Sequence record: LR597658
Reading direction: 5' to 3' (one strand)
DNA: 64,000 nt
DNA from: Escherichia phage VpaE1_ev108
Numbering within the stretch: position 1 is the first letter of the stretch; each line of letters starts with the position of its first letter. A program made the translations under genes and the position numbers. A model generated the notes under the pieces. The model was not told the origin of the DNA. It did not search any database and was given only the letters and a program-made list of their open reading frames with translations. This document shows, in pieces, positions 3,646-30,906 of the stretch.

Positions 3646-4194
3646 ATGAAGAAATTGATTCTAGGTTTGTGCTTAATGTTTACAGCACACTTATCTTATG
3701 CAGTTGACTGCCCAGAGCTATCAATTAGCCAAAAAGTGAACATGTTAAAAGCTTACCAGTATGGCGAGAATAACATGGGTAAAGGTTGGGGTATCACTCT
3801 AGCAGCTATAGCCTTACAAGAGTCAGAGTTAGGTCTGAAGGTAGAAAATAAAAAGACACATGATTATGGTATTTTCCAGAATCACTTGAAGACTGTTGTA
3901 AAGCGTAACAAAATTAGCCCTAATGTGGCTAAAAAGAAACTCTTAAGAGACTTTGATTATGCTGCGAAGGAAACTCACAAAGAGCTTGAGTTTTGGACAA
4001 AGGTGCATGGTCAGCCAAAGTCAAAGAAGACTTTACAAAAAGTTTTAGCATCATATAATGCTGGGTATTCGTACAGAATCCCTAAAGCTAAGAAGTATTC
4101 TCAAGATGTCTATAACAACATGAAAGTAATTGCTCAATGTGAATTTGCAACAAACATTTCTAAGGTAAATCATGAAAAAATTAAGAAAGTCTGA
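3646..4194 (+). CDS. secreted lytic transglycosylase-like protein (SLT motifs)
   Basis: signal-peptide-like N-terminus MKKLILGLCLMFTAHLSYA; SLT family-1 motifs ESELG, YGIFQ, SYNAGYS. Confidence 0.5.
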   Translation: MKKLILGLCLMFTAHLSYAVDCPELSISQKVNMLKAYQYGENNMGKGWGITLAAIALQESELGLKVENKKTHDYGIFQNHLKTVVKRNKISPNVAKKKLLRDFDYAAKETHKELEFWTKVHGQPKSKKTLQKVLASYNAGYSYRIPKAKKYSQDVYNNMKVIAQCEFATNISKVNHEKIKKV

Positions 4195-26011: not shown

Positions 26012-26088
26012 CTCTGTTTAGCTCAGCTTGGTAGAGCGTTCCGTTTGGGGCGGTAAGGCCGGAGGTTCAAGTCCTCCAACAGAGACCA
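26012..26088 (+). tRNA. tRNA-Pro (anticodon UGG)
   Basis: acceptor CTCTGTT/AACAGAG, T-arm GGAGG-TTCAAGT-CCTCC, loop ttTGGgg, encoded CCA. Confidence 0.6.
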
Positions 26089-26571: not shown

Positions 26572-26659
26572 GTGTCGTTATCCCGTAGATGGTAGCGGTG
26601 GGGACTGTAAATCCCTTGTCATTGAGACTCGGTAGGTTCGACTCCTACACGGCACACCA
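26572..26659 (+). tRNA. tRNA-Tyr (anticodon GUA), long variable arm
   Basis: 88 nt; acceptor GTGTCGT/ACGGCAC, anticodon stem GGGGA/TCCCT, loop ctGTAaa, T-loop TTCGACT, CCA. Confidence 0.65.
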
Positions 26660-26888: not shown

Positions 26889-27024
26889 TACAGAAGACCG
26901 TTTACAGCAAAACTTAACAATCTATTTCTCCGGTAAAGAAAAGGCGAAGGTTCGATTCCTTCACTCGGCAGATGTCGAGTTGGTGTAATGGTAGTACTTA
27001 AGATGATAAACAACGGTCTGGTAA
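26889..27024 (+). ncRNA. E4: candidate structured RNA, bulged stem enclosing a tRNA-like T-arm (Y-RNA-like?)
   Basis: CAGAAGACCGT ... ACGGTCTGG helix; interior has perfect T-arm GAAGG-TTCGATT-CCTTC, a second hairpin ACTCG..CGAGT and D-loop-like AGTTGGTGTAATGGTAG, but no acceptor stem. Confidence 0.35.
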
Positions 27025-27328: not shown

Positions 27329-27404
27329 GCTGGTATAGTTAAGAAGGTTATAACACTCCCCTGATAAGGGAACATCGGTGGTTCGATTCCACCTACCAGT
27401 ACCA
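27329..27404 (+). tRNA. tRNA-Ile (anticodon GAU)
   Basis: loop ctGATaa, T-arm GGTGG-TTCGATT-CCACC, CCA. Confidence 0.65.
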
Positions 27405-27411
27405 ATTTCAA

Positions 27412-27450
27412 TAAAGTTGTTGACATTGAGATGTGACTACTTTATAGTAA
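27412..27450 (+). promoter_or_regulatory. sigma70-like promoter internal to tRNA island
   Basis: AAAGTTG-TTGACA - 17 nt - TATAGT. Confidence 0.55.
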
Positions 27451-27651
27451 CCTTAGTTTTCGTTGCGTAGCGTCTATTTTGCAAATTTAAAATAAATGCA
27501 AACGACAATGTTTTTCTGGCAGTAGCTTGATAGGCTAAACACCAGTGAGGTCTTCCAATCCCTCATCAAAGAATTTGGCGTACTCGCCCACGGTATGATT
27601 AATAAGGTGGGCATCTTTAAGGGCTTTCTAAGAGAGTCTTTAAAGATTAAT

Positions 27652-27870: not shown

Positions 27871-27953
27871 ATGGGACGATGTTAAGACTCTAAGGCATGA
27901 GCAACGGCTTCCAACACCGTTTCAAAGGGGTTCAACTCCTCCGTCCCATGCCA
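27871..27953 (+). tRNA. tRNA-Trp-like (anticodon CCA), atypical 83 nt with enlarged D region
   Basis: perfect acceptor ATGGGAC/GTCCCAT, T-loop TTCAACT, loop ttCCAac, CCA; D-arm cannot be folded canonically. Confidence 0.4.
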
Positions 27954-27966
27954 AAATCTTATTAGG

Positions 27967-28054
27967 GGTAGGTAGCGGCTAATGGTAGCCAAACTGTCTT
28001 GAAAACAGTTGCCACTGTAGAGATACGGTGAGGGTTCGACTCCTTTACTTACCG
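27967..28054 (+). tRNA. tRNA-Ser (anticodon UGA), long variable arm, no encoded CCA
   Basis: 88 nt; anticodon stem ACTGT/ACAGT, loop ctTGAaa, 3-bp D stem, T-loop TTCGACT. Confidence 0.6.
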
Positions 28055-28210
28055 CCTAATAAGATTTAAAGCCAAGCTTCATTCGGATGTTGCTTTGGTA
28101 TCCCGCGTGTATTGTTGTACACACTGATAAAGCACCTAGTAGGTGTCACGGAGAAGAGATAATATCAAGCTCTCCAAAGGTTCTAGTCACCGGATTAAAC
28201 AAGACTATGC

Positions 28211-28311: not shown

Positions 28312-28389
28312 GGGAGATTGACGGTAATTGGTAAACCTATCTCGCTTAGAACGAGATGTTTGAGGGTTCGAATCCCTTGTCTCCTACCA
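28312..28389 (+). tRNA. tRNA with UAG anticodon (Leu by anticodon; class-I length)
   Basis: acceptor GGGAGAT/GTCTCCT, anticodon stem TCTCG/CGAGA, loop ctTAGaa, T-arm GAGGG-TTCGAAT-CCCTT, CCA; short variable arm. Confidence 0.5.
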
Positions 28390-28396
28390 AATTAAT

Positions 28397-28472
28397 GCAG
28401 GTGTAGCAAAATGGTTATGCGGCTGACTCTTAATCAGTAAGACGATGGGTTCAATTCCCTCCACCTGTACCA
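28397..28472 (+). tRNA. tRNA-Lys (anticodon CUU)
   Basis: acceptor GCAGGTG/CACCTGT, loop ctCTTaa, T-loop TTCAATT, CCA. Confidence 0.55.
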
Positions 28473-28477
28473 AAAAT

Positions 28478-28553
28478 GGGGTCATAGTTTATATGGTTAA
28501 AATTCGAGTTTTGCAAACTTGGGAACTGAGTTCAATTCTCAGTGACTCCACCA
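28478..28553 (+). tRNA. tRNA-Ala (anticodon UGC)
   Basis: G3:U70 pair in acceptor stem, loop ttTGCaa, T-arm CTGAG-TTCAATT-CTCAG, CCA. Confidence 0.7.
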
Positions 28554-28559
28554 ATTAGT

Positions 28560-28634
28560 GCATCCATAGTTTAAACGGGAAAATTACAGTCTTCCAAACT
28601 GAGGTTGAGGGTTCGATTCCCTCTGGATGCTCCA
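28560..28634 (+). tRNA. tRNA-Gly (anticodon UCC)
   Basis: perfect acceptor GCATCCA/TGGATGC, loop ctTCCaa, T-loop TTCGATT, CCA. Confidence 0.7.
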
Positions 28635-28641
28635 AATTAAT

Positions 28642-28717
28642 GCTTCTATCGTATAATTGGCTATTACGGTTGCCTTGTAAGTAACTTATCAGGGTTCGAA
28701 TCCTTGTGGGAGCACCA
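28642..28717 (+). tRNA. tRNA-Thr (anticodon UGU)
   Basis: anticodon stem GTTGC/GTAAC, loop ctTGTaa, T-arm CAGGG-TTCGAAT-CCTTG, CCA. Confidence 0.65.
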
Positions 28718-28814
28718 ATTTAGAGGTCAAGTGAAAGACCGCTTTGAGTCAACTGAAGACCGTAACAAATTCCACGGAGTTGAGTTAGCGGCACAACTCC
28801 AGACCTCTTCTCAC

Positions 28815-28889
28815 ACTCGCTTAGTTTATATGGTAAAACACCACCCTTACAAGATGAAGAAAAAGGTTCAAGTCCTTTAGTGAGTACCA
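28815..28889 (+). tRNA. tRNA-Val-like (anticodon UAC), weak anticodon stem, possible pseudo-tRNA
   Basis: acceptor ACTCGCT/AGTGAGT, D-arm GTTT..AAAC, loop ctTACaa, T-arm AAAGG-TTCAAGT-CCTTT, CCA; anticodon stem pairs only 3 of 5. Confidence 0.4.
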
Positions 28890-28890
28890 T

Positions 28891-28968
28891 GTTCCAGTAT
28901 CCCAATTGGCAGAGGATGCAAGCTCAAACCTTGTACTAGTGACGGTTCGAATCCGTCTTGGAACACCA
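28891..28968 (+). tRNA. tRNA with CAA anticodon (Leu by anticodon; class-I length)
   Basis: acceptor GTTCCAG/TTGGAAC, anticodon stem GCAAG/CTTGT, loop ctCAAac, T-arm GACGG-TTCGAAT-CCGTC, CCA. Confidence 0.5.
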
Positions 28969-28973
28969 ATTTT

Positions 28974-29049
28974 GCAGGATTAGTTCAAATGGATAGAGCA
29001 ACAGTCTACGAAGCTGTTAATAGGGGTTCGAATCCCTTATCCTGCGCCA
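28974..29049 (+). tRNA. tRNA-Arg (anticodon ACG)
   Basis: perfect acceptor GCAGGAT/ATCCTGC, D-arm GTTC..GAGC, loop ctACGaa, T-loop TTCGAAT, CCA. Confidence 0.7.
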
Positions 29050-29068
29050 ATTTAAAGAGGCTATTTAG

Positions 29069-29626
29069 ATGAGATATTTGAAGTATGCTTCATGGATTTT
29101 CTTAGCTTTGTTAGAACCATTTGCAGCAATCTTAGCAGTTATCTTAGCACCTTTTGTAGTTCCATTCTACAGTGAGAAGAAAGGACACTTACCTTTCGGG
29201 TTCAGATGGATGGAGACATATGACAACCCAATTGATGGTGATGAAGGTCACGTTAAAAGATGGGCTAATATTAGATGGATTGGTAAACTAGGTGTCTACA
29301 TGCAAAGAGTCGGATGGCTCTGGAGAAACAAAGCTTATAACTTCTCTTACCATGTGTTAGGAAGAGATGTAAAAGATGTTACTAAGTGGAAAGGTAATAT
29401 CAACGTAAGTTCTAACCCTGAAGATAATCAGACAGGTTATCTCCTAATGTGGAACAGTAATGCTTGGGGATTATTCGCTTTTACCCCATCAATTAAAATC
29501 TTTGGTAAACAGTTTTACTGGAGAATTTATATTGGGTGGAAGCTAAAAAGTGTTGTCCCAGAAGAAAGAGCATTCTCAAGGGAAAGAGTTATGTTGGCAT
29601 TCTTTATTCATCCACTAAGAAAGTAA
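29069..29626 (+). CDS. hypothetical Trp-rich membrane protein embedded in tRNA island
   Basis: 185 aa ORF; N-terminal hydrophobic segment WIFLALLEPFAAILAVILAPFVV; AAGAGG SD; TTA/AGA-rich codon usage unlike structural genes. Confidence 0.55.
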   Translation: MRYLKYASWIFLALLEPFAAILAVILAPFVVPFYSEKKGHLPFGFRWMETYDNPIDGDEGHVKRWANIRWIGKLGVYMQRVGWLWRNKAYNFSYHVLGRDVKDVTKWKGNINVSSNPEDNQTGYLLMWNSNAWGLFAFTPSIKIFGKQFYWRIYIGWKLKSVVPEERAFSRERVMLAFFIHPLRK

Positions 29627-29634
29627 AGATTTAA

Positions 29635-29710
29635 AGGGGATTAGTTTACAAGGTTAAAACCTCGGTCTTTGAAATCGAAGAAGTTGGTTCAATTCCAACA
29701 TCCCCCGCCA
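29635..29710 (+). tRNA. tRNA-Gln (anticodon UUG)
   Basis: anticodon stem TCGGT/ATCGA, loop ctTTGaa, T-arm GTTGG-TTCAATT-CCAAC, CCA. Confidence 0.55.
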
Positions 29711-29712
29711 AT

Positions 29713-29791
29713 GCTCCATTACTCCAATTGGCAGAGAGGCCAGACTTAAAATCTGTGTTATGTATCGGTTCGAATCCGATATGGAGTACCA
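29713..29791 (+). tRNA. tRNA with UAA anticodon (Leu by anticodon; class-I length)
   Basis: acceptor GCTCCAT/ATGGAGT, loop ctTAAaa, T-arm ATCGG-TTCGAAT-CCGAT, CCA; variable region about 8 nt. Confidence 0.45.
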
Positions 29792-30813: not shown

Positions 30814-30906
30814 GGAAGATTAACCCTAAAAGGTAAGGGAGCAGTTTGCTAAACTGCCAGTAGCTGAGAAATCGGTGTACCAGTTCAAGTCTGGTATCTT
30901 CCTCCA
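30814..30906 (+). tRNA. tRNA-Ser (anticodon GCU), long variable arm
   Basis: 93 nt; acceptor GGAAGAT/ATCTTCC, anticodon stem GCAGT/ACTGC, loop ttGCTaa, T-arm ACCAG-TTCAAGT-CTGGT, CCA. Confidence 0.65.

Follow-up and report, generated by a model that had tools for sequence, protein, structure and literature searches.

Leucine tRNAs without a long variable arm in the tRNA island of a Felix O1-like coliphage, and their occurrence in other phages

The stretch of Escherichia phage VpaE1_ev108 DNA analysed here (64,000 nucleotides (nt); sequence record LR597658; hereafter the window) belongs to Felixounavirus (subfamily Ounavirinae) and represents a Felix O1-like coliphage, a myovirus. Between positions 26012 and 30986, on the plus strand, it carries a tRNA island in which ARAGORN and Rfam place 26 tRNA genes, all on a single strand and with small open reading frames (ORFs) between them. 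The called tRNAs correspond to 19 amino acids, tryptophan being the sole one absent. This study deals with three genes of the island that carry leucine anticodons on tRNAs of class I length. The 5.2-kb region around these genes shares 95-99.6% identity with over 230 myoviruses of Felix O1-like type (Escherichia, Salmonella and Shigella phages); "tRNA-Leu (x3)" is annotated at the matching site in many of these records, and Leu(UAG) is labelled "tRNA-OTHER" or "tRNA-Thr" in some of them. The three genes are:

28312-28389, plus strand: tRNA-Leu(UAG), 78 nt with CCA; variable region UGUUU; A73; G1.U72; Rfam score 44.5 bits.
28891-28968, plus strand: tRNA-Leu(CAA), 78 nt with CCA; variable region ACUAGU; A73; Rfam score 43.6 bits.
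29713-29791, plus strand: tRNA-Leu(UAA), 79 nt with CCA; variable region GUUAUGU; A73; G1.U72; Rfam score 47.5 bits.

Textbooks and the primary literature describe bacterial tRNA-Leu as class II, the class defined by a variable arm of more than 10 nt that forms a stem-loop. The variable regions of the three phage genes measure 5, 6 and 7 nt and form no stem; ARAGORN reported an encoded CCA end in each, preceded by 75-76 nt, a length that makes a long arm impossible. The coordinates and anticodons coincide with those of the original prediction, an earlier reading of the window that had singled out three leucine-anticodon tRNAs of class I length, and no other anticodon, other isotype or long arm was found for any of them. 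The scores of all three exceed the gathering score of Rfam model RF00005 (29 bits), with E values of 3e-7 to 5e-8, and U33 and A37 are present in every case. The D arm of Leu(CAA), UCC-CAAUUGGCAGA-GGA, has the 3-base-pair (bp) stem and 11-nt loop of Escherichia coli tRNA-Leu, that of Leu(UAA) is CUC-CAAUUGGCAGA-GAG, and Leu(UAG) shows a Leu-type D loop, UAAUUGGUAAA, with one extra nucleotide in the D region. The serine and tyrosine tRNAs of the same island, which the earlier reading had described as long-armed, have indeed variable regions of 15-21 nt with stems and served as internal comparators:

26572-26659, plus strand: tRNA-Tyr(GUA), class II, 88 nt, long arm kept.
27967-28056, plus strand: tRNA-Ser(UGA), class II, 90 nt, long arm kept.
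30814-30906, plus strand: tRNA-Ser(GCU), class II, 93 nt, long arm kept; discriminator U73.

The three leucine genes are not mis-folds: this option, raised with the original prediction, is ruled out by the agreement of ARAGORN and Rfam on a class-I-like cloverleaf and by the strong covariation of the homologues on that same structure.

The island tRNAs were tabulated beside E. coli K-12 leuW, leuZ, leuX and leuQPV. The phage D arms are in register with, and in sequence nearly the same as, those of the E. coli leucine tRNAs (U8, A14 A15 U16 U17 G18 G19 Y20 A20a, with a 3-bp D stem and an 11-nt loop), and U8, A14, A15, U48, A73 and the CCA end occur in all three phage genes. Their T loops read UUCGAAU, with the partners U54, U55, C56 and A58 present, and their anticodons, UAG, CAA and UAA, conform to the leucine patterns NAG or YAA. 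Thus E. coli leuW (UAG), leuX (CAA) and leuZ (UAA) share with the phage genes the anticodons, D-arm register, U48, A73 and CCA, and leuZ also the G1.U72 pair; they differ in having 85-87 nt and paired variable arms of 13-15 nt, versus 5-7 unpaired nt in the phage, and their acceptor, anticodon and T stems bear no sequence relation to those of the phage.

In the review of Giege and Eriani, the leucine identity set of E. coli comprises A73, the A15-U48 trans-Levitt pair, G18G19, A20a and the tertiary pairs that join the D loop to the T loop, and the E. coli leucyl-tRNA synthetase (LeuRS) can dispense with both the anticodon and the long variable arm, variants without anticodon arm and variable arm being active. 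The phage tRNAs therefore hold everything that E. coli LeuRS is known to use, since U8:A14, A15-U48, G18G19, A20a and A73 are all kept. Engineered E. coli tRNA-Leu without the arm is charged by LeuRS provided that A73 and the D/T tertiary contacts are kept (as summarised by Giege and Eriani). Those molecules are laboratory constructs, and the phage tRNAs look like their natural counterpart. Such arm-less constructs are reportedly due to Larkin and co-workers in 2002, and an in vitro selection is said to have been made by Asahara and co-workers in 1998.

We consider it likely, with a probability of about 0.8, that the three genes encode working leucine tRNAs of class I shape, devoid of the long variable arm and presumably charged by the host LeuRS. 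They would be transcribed within the phage tRNA island with their CCA ends already encoded, and the host enzyme would read A73 and the tertiary core (U8:A14, A15-U48, the placement of G18G19, A20a and the contacts between D and T loops), not the anticodon or the arm. The codons read would be UUA/UUG, UUG and CUA/CUG, which are served in the host by minor isoacceptors and used heavily by the AT-rich phage. The tRNAs would be used in translation, and the arm may have been lost by tolerated streamlining or as a counter-defence.

Conservation among viral sequences was consistent with this proposal. In 167 unique short viral leucine tRNAs, A73 was found in 166 and U48 in 165, neither position being part of the search pattern, and the commonest variable region had 5 nt (141/167); the corresponding values in the viral class II leucine set were 205/208 for A73 and 203/208 for U48. 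In an alignment of 116 sequences, the window's three included, U8, A14, A15, G18, G19, A20a, U33, A35, U48, C56, A58 and A73 were invariant. On the class I cloverleaf, 98.2% of the cells of this alignment were paired and two-sided changes were seen at 20 of the 20 pairs; the set had been preselected by ARAGORN, which inflates the paired percentage and leaves the compensatory pattern unaffected. The covariation score was 1.06, versus 0.25 in shuffled alignments (none of 500 reached the observed value) and 0.13-0.19 in slid registers. The G1.U72 pair was rejected as a special mark of arm-less leucine tRNAs, as it also occurs in E. coli leuZ, in 45/116 class I and in 56/208 class II viral leucine tRNAs.

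At closer range, Leu(CAA) is at least 95% identical in 247 phage records and Leu(UAA) at least 99% identical in 215 of the 263 matching phage records. Leu(UAG) exists in two Felixounavirus alleles: the window gene and that of phage Alf5 (L368 2084-2161) differ at 8 positions, all of them in the anticodon stem and amounting to four two-sided pair changes, one of which gives U.U at 30-40, and the other 70 nt are identical. This distribution suggests diversifying pressure on the anticodon stem. A gapless comparison with the Leu(UAG) of phage Michonne was uninformative, the Michonne gene being a different 77-nt sequence.

Several observations weigh against the three genes being working, host-charged leucine tRNAs. 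Besides the inflated paired percentage mentioned above, their Rfam scores are the lowest among the class I tRNAs of the island, and the D stem of Leu(UAG) is weak (2-3 pairs). The A15-U48 pair was discarded as a leucine-only signature in the island, where the Thr, Asp, Arg(UCU) and Gln(CUG) tRNAs have the same combination, so that the pair alone is not leucine-specific here. Removal of the arm lowered the affinity for Aquifex LeuRS, and for this reason the phage tRNAs may be weaker substrates than long-armed ones. Finally, E. coli LeuRS was unable to leucylate the Streptomyces coelicolor type I tRNA-Leu CAA, and reportedly charges no tRNA-Leu other than type II (Fan et al. 2019, PMC6614811).

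The low scores and the weak D stem would also be expected if the genes were no adaptors at all, that is, decaying pseudogenes or tRNA-like decoys that escape aminoacylation, and this is further favoured by the presence of other degenerate tRNA-like pieces in the island and by the annotation of several "tRNA-like stable RNAs of unknown function" in phage T5. Against decay stand the conservation of Leu(UAA), which at the above level of identity exceeds the approximately 96-97% of the whole island, the compensatory changes in all four helices, and the near invariance of U33, A35, A37, U48, A73 and the encoded CCA. In addition, the anticodons suit the codon usage of the phage, and the UAG/CAA/UAA trio is found in unrelated phage families. 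We regard non-adaptor genes as very improbable.

The Streptomyces case deserves separate consideration. The S. coelicolor tRNA-Leu CAA is the sole bacterial type I tRNA-Leu described, and 5 nt was the shortest variable loop with good activity in it (Fan et al. 2019, PMC6614811). It resembles the phage tRNAs in its leucine anticodon, A73, A14 and short variable loop (5 nt), and it coexists with one LeuRS. It differs from them at position 48, which is C in this tRNA and U both in the type II Streptomyces tRNA and in all the phage leucine tRNAs. It is also a single cellular gene, whereas the phage combines A15-U48 with leucine isoacceptors that are all arm-less and needs an enterobacterial LeuRS. 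Since E. coli LeuRS depends on the A15-U48 pair, the charging failure may be a consequence of C48 and need not apply to the phage tRNAs.

The same failure, together with a class I shape that is unusual for bacterial tRNA-Leu, could instead be taken to mean that tRNAs with leucine anticodons are charged here with another amino acid, so that UUA, UUG and CUA are partly recoded; the original prediction had mentioned altered identity along these lines. In the Sf14 homologue of Leu(UAG), the isotype scores for Ile2 (65.7) and Lys (63.4) come near that for Leu (67.4). However, the tRNAscan-SE isotype models rank leucine top for all three Sf14 homologues (BMC Genomics paper on phage Sf14, in which the variable arm is unmentioned), and the synthetases that might accept a class I tRNA with A73, those for Ile, Val, Met and Lys, need anticodons that are absent here (Giege and Eriani review). 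A73, A15-U48, G18G19 and A20a are kept, moreover, and are nearly invariant across the 167 homologues.

The meaning of the codons was examined in the large terminase, the major capsid protein and thymidylate synthase (ThyA) of the phage, aligned with 101, 49 and 80 homologues, respectively, at 25-58% identity. At TTA, TTG, CTA and CTG positions (n=60) the mean leucine fraction in the homologues was 0.54, with a leucine consensus at 43/60; at CTT and CTC positions (n=25), codons read only by host tRNAs, the mean fraction was likewise 0.54, with a leucine consensus at 16/25. Leucine was the top aligned residue for each leucine codon in the three proteins. These data indicate that TTA, TTG, CTA and CTG encode leucine in the phage, so that a tRNA inserting another residue would do harm. 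No synthetase was found among the window ORFs of at least 250 amino acids. Altogether, no sign of altered identity was found for the three tRNAs, and we hold a change of amino acid to be exceedingly unlikely; of the two descriptions in the original prediction, that of unusual phage tRNAs stands and that of altered identity is not supported, the identity elements being kept and the leucine codons lying at leucine positions. In the 56 window ORFs, leucine is specified by TTA (28%), CTT (28%), TTG (13%), CTG (13%), CTA (12%) and CTC (6%), a usage that fits a supply of UAA, CAA and UAG anticodons, and the Sf14 paper (BMC Genomics) graded the three leucine tRNAs as consistent with codon compensation.

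To place these leucine tRNAs in a wider frame, IMG/VR viral contigs were scanned for a Leu-type D loop at a fixed distance from a leucine anticodon and followed by a T loop. All frequencies given below are proportions among the matches listed, that is, samples and not totals, and related contigs are not independent. Class I and class II spacing each gave at least 120 matches in the viral scans. When either spacing was allowed, the 80 viral contigs listed held 29 class I, 2 intermediate and 65 class II leucine tRNAs (30% class I), versus 3 class I and 118 class II among the 120 cellular loci listed, one genome per species (2.5% class I; Fisher p = 5.6e-9). Over the samples listed, arm-less leucine tRNAs were 8- to 14-fold enriched in viral over cellular DNA. 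ARAGORN recognised 162 leucine tRNAs with a variable region of 5-7 nt on the listed viral loci with the class I pattern, and on those same loci the long arm was kept in 99 of 100 serine tRNAs and in every tyrosine tRNA. An independent sample of viral loci, listed through their tRNA-Arg(UCU), contained 5 arm-less leucine tRNAs out of 27 (19%; D-loop variants, always with U48 and A73), and all of its serine (17/17) and tyrosine (10/10) tRNAs were long. The arm-less share of leucine tRNAs rose with the number of tRNAs per locus among the matches listed, from 0/22 at loci with two or fewer, which probably include host genes beside prophages, to 36% at loci with at least five. Arm-less tRNAs make up roughly a fifth to a third of the leucine tRNAs in phage tRNA clusters, and are rare in cellular genomes. 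The contrast drawn in the original prediction, with the long-armed tRNA-Leu of bacteria and phage T4, is valid for E. coli and T5 (class II, 85-87 nt) and not for phages in general.

Seryl-tRNA synthetase measures the variable arm; among the class II tRNAs, only that for leucine has a synthetase that can do without it. That phages repeatedly carry arm-less leucine tRNAs but not arm-less serine or tyrosine tRNAs may thus be explained because LeuRS alone needs no arm.

Of the three class I cases in the cellular sample, two were lone Leu(UAA) genes, from the actinomycetes Gordonia and Herbiconiux, and the third was a phage-like cluster made up of three short leucine tRNAs. The chromosomal, class-I-length Leu(UAA) genes of Gordonia sp. 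(L276 491-566) and Herbiconiux sp. (L318 2732-2806) have a D arm, CCCAATTGGCAGAGG, that nearly matches the D arm of the phage Leu(CAA) and Leu(UAA); both are UAA isoacceptors, unlike the published Streptomyces type I case, which is CAA. The cluster (L335 3550-3912) is a tight trio of class I leucine tRNAs (CAG, UAA, GAG) followed by an oddly long, 100-nt Tyr-like tRNA, and looks like a prophage tRNA array.

The genes themselves are not new, being annotated in hundreds of records, and mitochondria and the one Streptomyces gene already provide examples of class I tRNA-Leu. The type I tRNA-Leu of animal mitochondria shares with the phage tRNAs a short variable loop and the identity elements A73 and A14; it differs in being charged by a LeuRS dedicated to mitochondria, within a compartment of their own, and in its often floppy, degenerate core, the phage D- and T-loop elements being canonical. 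No description of arm-less phage tRNA-Leu was found in the literature searched, most subscription journals lying outside that search, so that an earlier mention is possible; phylogeny papers of 2008 report short arms in some Leu, Ser and Tyr tRNAs and nothing further. What we have not found described is that enterobacterial and many other phages have exclusively or frequently arm-less leucine tRNAs, unlike cellular genomes and unlike serine and tyrosine tRNAs.

Cultured relatives and more distant phages illustrate this distribution, with short leucine tRNAs of 76-79 nt. Within the Ounavirinae they were found in Pectobacterium phage Arno162 (UAG, UAA), Erwinia phage Roscha1 (Kolesnikvirus; CAA, AAG, UAA) and Citrobacter phage Michonne (Mooglevirus; three genes), and Yersinia phage P778, related to the Felix O1 group, has UAG and UAA. 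Elsewhere they occur in Acinetobacter phage phiAbaA1 (Saclayvirus; UAG), T5_ev219 (Tequintavirus; UAG, plus an unannotated Leu(UAA) at L006 3338-3414), Aeromonas phage TS3 (Demerecviridae; UAG, CAA, UAA) and Lactobacillus phage LpeD (Herelleviridae; UAG, UAA, CAA), the UAG/CAA/UAA trio recurring in families that are unrelated. Regarding the records of these phages, the 26 tRNAs of P778 are unannotated and overlapped by "hypothetical protein" ORFs, the public record of LpeD has no annotation of its tRNAs, and a tRNA of TS3 with a CUA anticodon (L397 65-139) is annotated "tRNA-Pyl"; the latter is possibly an amber-suppressor tRNA in a Demerecviridae phage.

Phage T5, also an enterobacterial phage with a tRNA island, differs from the window in that its Leu(UAG), located in an Ala-Leu-Ser slot, is a class II tRNA of 85 nt with a 3-bp variable stem. 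In T5_ev219 the same slot is occupied by a class I Leu(UAG). A mere deletion of the arm at this site was rejected, as the T5 and T5_ev219 genes differ also in the acceptor and T stems and that of T5_ev219 is closer to the window gene; to judge by these sequences, the leucine gene of the slot was evidently replaced, not trimmed. The presence, in the T5-like slot, of a class II Leu(UAG) in some phages and of an unrelated class I one in others implies exchange between phages.

A possible addition to the proposal of working, LeuRS-charged tRNAs is that the loss of the arm is adaptive: with charging retained, it would let the tRNAs escape host nucleases or nucleotidyltransferase toxins that recognise the class II arm. 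The viral enrichment reported above and the confinement of arm-less leucine tRNAs to tRNA islands (among the matches listed) would agree with such a role, and so would the exchange at the T5-like slot. The Leu(UAG) alleles that differ in the anticodon stem alone give a hint of pressure from tRNA-targeting enzymes, and the abortive-infection toxin AbiEii appears to favour class II tRNAs. There is also a precedent for a phage changing a variable loop to resist a nuclease in the tRNA-Tyr of T5, which differs from the arm-less leucine tRNAs in that its arm is kept. On the other hand, a tolerated deletion together with genome streamlining gives the same pattern, class II leucine tRNAs are kept in many phage islands, that of T5 included, and we know of no enterobacterial defence system that targets the variable arm of tRNA-Leu. 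A counter-defence role of arm loss is plausible, and we would still count it among the less likely explanations. Similarly, we have low confidence in the broader statement that arm loss from phage tRNA-Leu is a widespread counter-defence, with charging of a natural type I tRNA-Leu by E. coli LeuRS, contrary to the published statement, as its corollary.

Two further elements of the island had been flagged as atypical in the original prediction, and both observations were borne out:

28815-28889, plus strand: tRNA-Val(UAC), called by ARAGORN; Rfam score 55.8 bits; anticodon stem CCACC/GAUGA with C27.A43 and C30.A40 mismatches.
27871-27953, plus strand: Trp-like RNA gene; acceptor AUGGGAC/GUCCCAU (7-8 bp), A1-U72, G73, CCA; supported by conservation and covariation.

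The weak anticodon stem that had been noted in tRNA-Val(UAC) comes from these two C.A mismatches. That at 30-40 is conserved, a mismatch being present there in the six Ounavirinae Val(UAC) genes examined (6/6), as C.A in Felixounavirus and as U.U in Arno162, Roscha1, Michonne and P778. The 27-43 mismatch appears to be a recent transition, because the pair is U-A in Alf5. The anticodon stem of the T5 Val(UAC) is fully paired.

The Trp-like element, for which a CCA anticodon and an enlarged D region had been pointed out, is a real conserved unit with an enlarged 5' region. It received no ARAGORN call at default settings and no Rfam match at E<=1. An intron-containing tRNA-Trp with a 55-nt intron (ARAGORN -i -ps60) was rejected in view of a very lax threshold, a poor D arm and an acceptor inferior to the covarying, uninterrupted one. 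The element departs from the canonical cloverleaf by an extra connector, GAUGUUAAG, invariant and placed between the acceptor and D stems (a 7-nt insertion, giving a connector of 9 nt instead of 2), by an 8/4 instead of a 7/5 acceptor/T stack with a 4-bp T stem, and by closure of the anticodon loop through C.A or C.C; in the window, the loop that carries the CCA anticodon has 7 nt and a C.A mismatch at its base, equivalent to a 9-nt loop. It agrees with E. coli tRNA-Trp in its anticodon, in G73 and in A1-U72, the last being a feature of the E. coli tRNA (Giege and Eriani review), and the elements of Alf5 and Michonne have the E. coli loop CUCCAAA.

This element is conserved in Alf5 (L368 ~1643-1725), in Michonne (L367 ~2603-2685), in the distant Yersinia phage P778 (L366 ~4001-4085) and in 27 viral contigs. 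Its helices vary in a paired manner: AACGG/CCGTT, GTAAG/CTTAC and GTAGG/CCTAC in the anticodon stem, CTC/GAG, CAC/GTG and ACAC/GTGT in the D stem, GGGG/CCTC and TGGG/CCTA in the T stem, and AT..AT and GC..GC in the acceptor. RNAalifold on the relatives found 8 of 20 pairs compensatory in a structure with stems of 8 bp (acceptor), 3 bp (D), 5 bp (anticodon) and 4 bp (T). This pattern indicates a conserved, covarying and non-canonical RNA derived from tRNA-Trp, and we infer that it is a functional or recently functional non-canonical tRNA-Trp. As such, it would supply tryptophan, the amino acid that the other 26 tRNAs leave out. A canonical tRNA-Trp is present in Erwinia phage Roscha1. Among related phages, homology stops exactly where the Trp-like element has its 5' edge (~27870), and in some relatives HNH endonuclease ORFs are annotated beside the element, an arrangement consistent with homing-endonuclease traffic reshaping the island.

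Other features of the island were recorded in passing. The discriminator of tRNA-Ser(GCU) (30814-30906) is U73 in place of G73, and that of its homologue in Yersinia phage P778 (L366 6863-6955) is A73, the leucine discriminator on a class II body; in E. coli, G73 of tRNA-Ser is an antideterminant against LeuRS. In the 250-nt gap between the tRNA-Ile and tRNA-Arg genes, positions 27346-27651 give weak, sub-threshold Rfam matches to permuted transfer-messenger RNA (tmRNA; 29.2 bits, E = 0.004) and to tmRNA (15.9 bits), which are probably due to chance or to a tRNA-like remnant. In the 430-nt gap after tRNA-Asp, positions 26914-26963 match model positions 7-64 of the tRNA family at 22 bits and include a good T arm, GAAGGTTCGATTCCTTC, possibly a degraded tRNA.

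In practical terms, the arm-less leucine genes are mislabelled in some records, as indicated above for Leu(UAG), or left unannotated, and the Trp-like gene is missed everywhere. If the three leucine tRNAs are charged in enterobacteria, they would exemplify in nature the arm-independent recognition that engineered tRNAs had suggested, and acceptance of a type I tRNA-Leu by E. coli LeuRS would hinge on position 48, not on the arm. The contrast between leucine and serine or tyrosine tRNAs, together with the viral enrichment, offers a testable handle on why phages carry tRNAs of their own and on whether the variable arm is a target in the conflict between phage and host.

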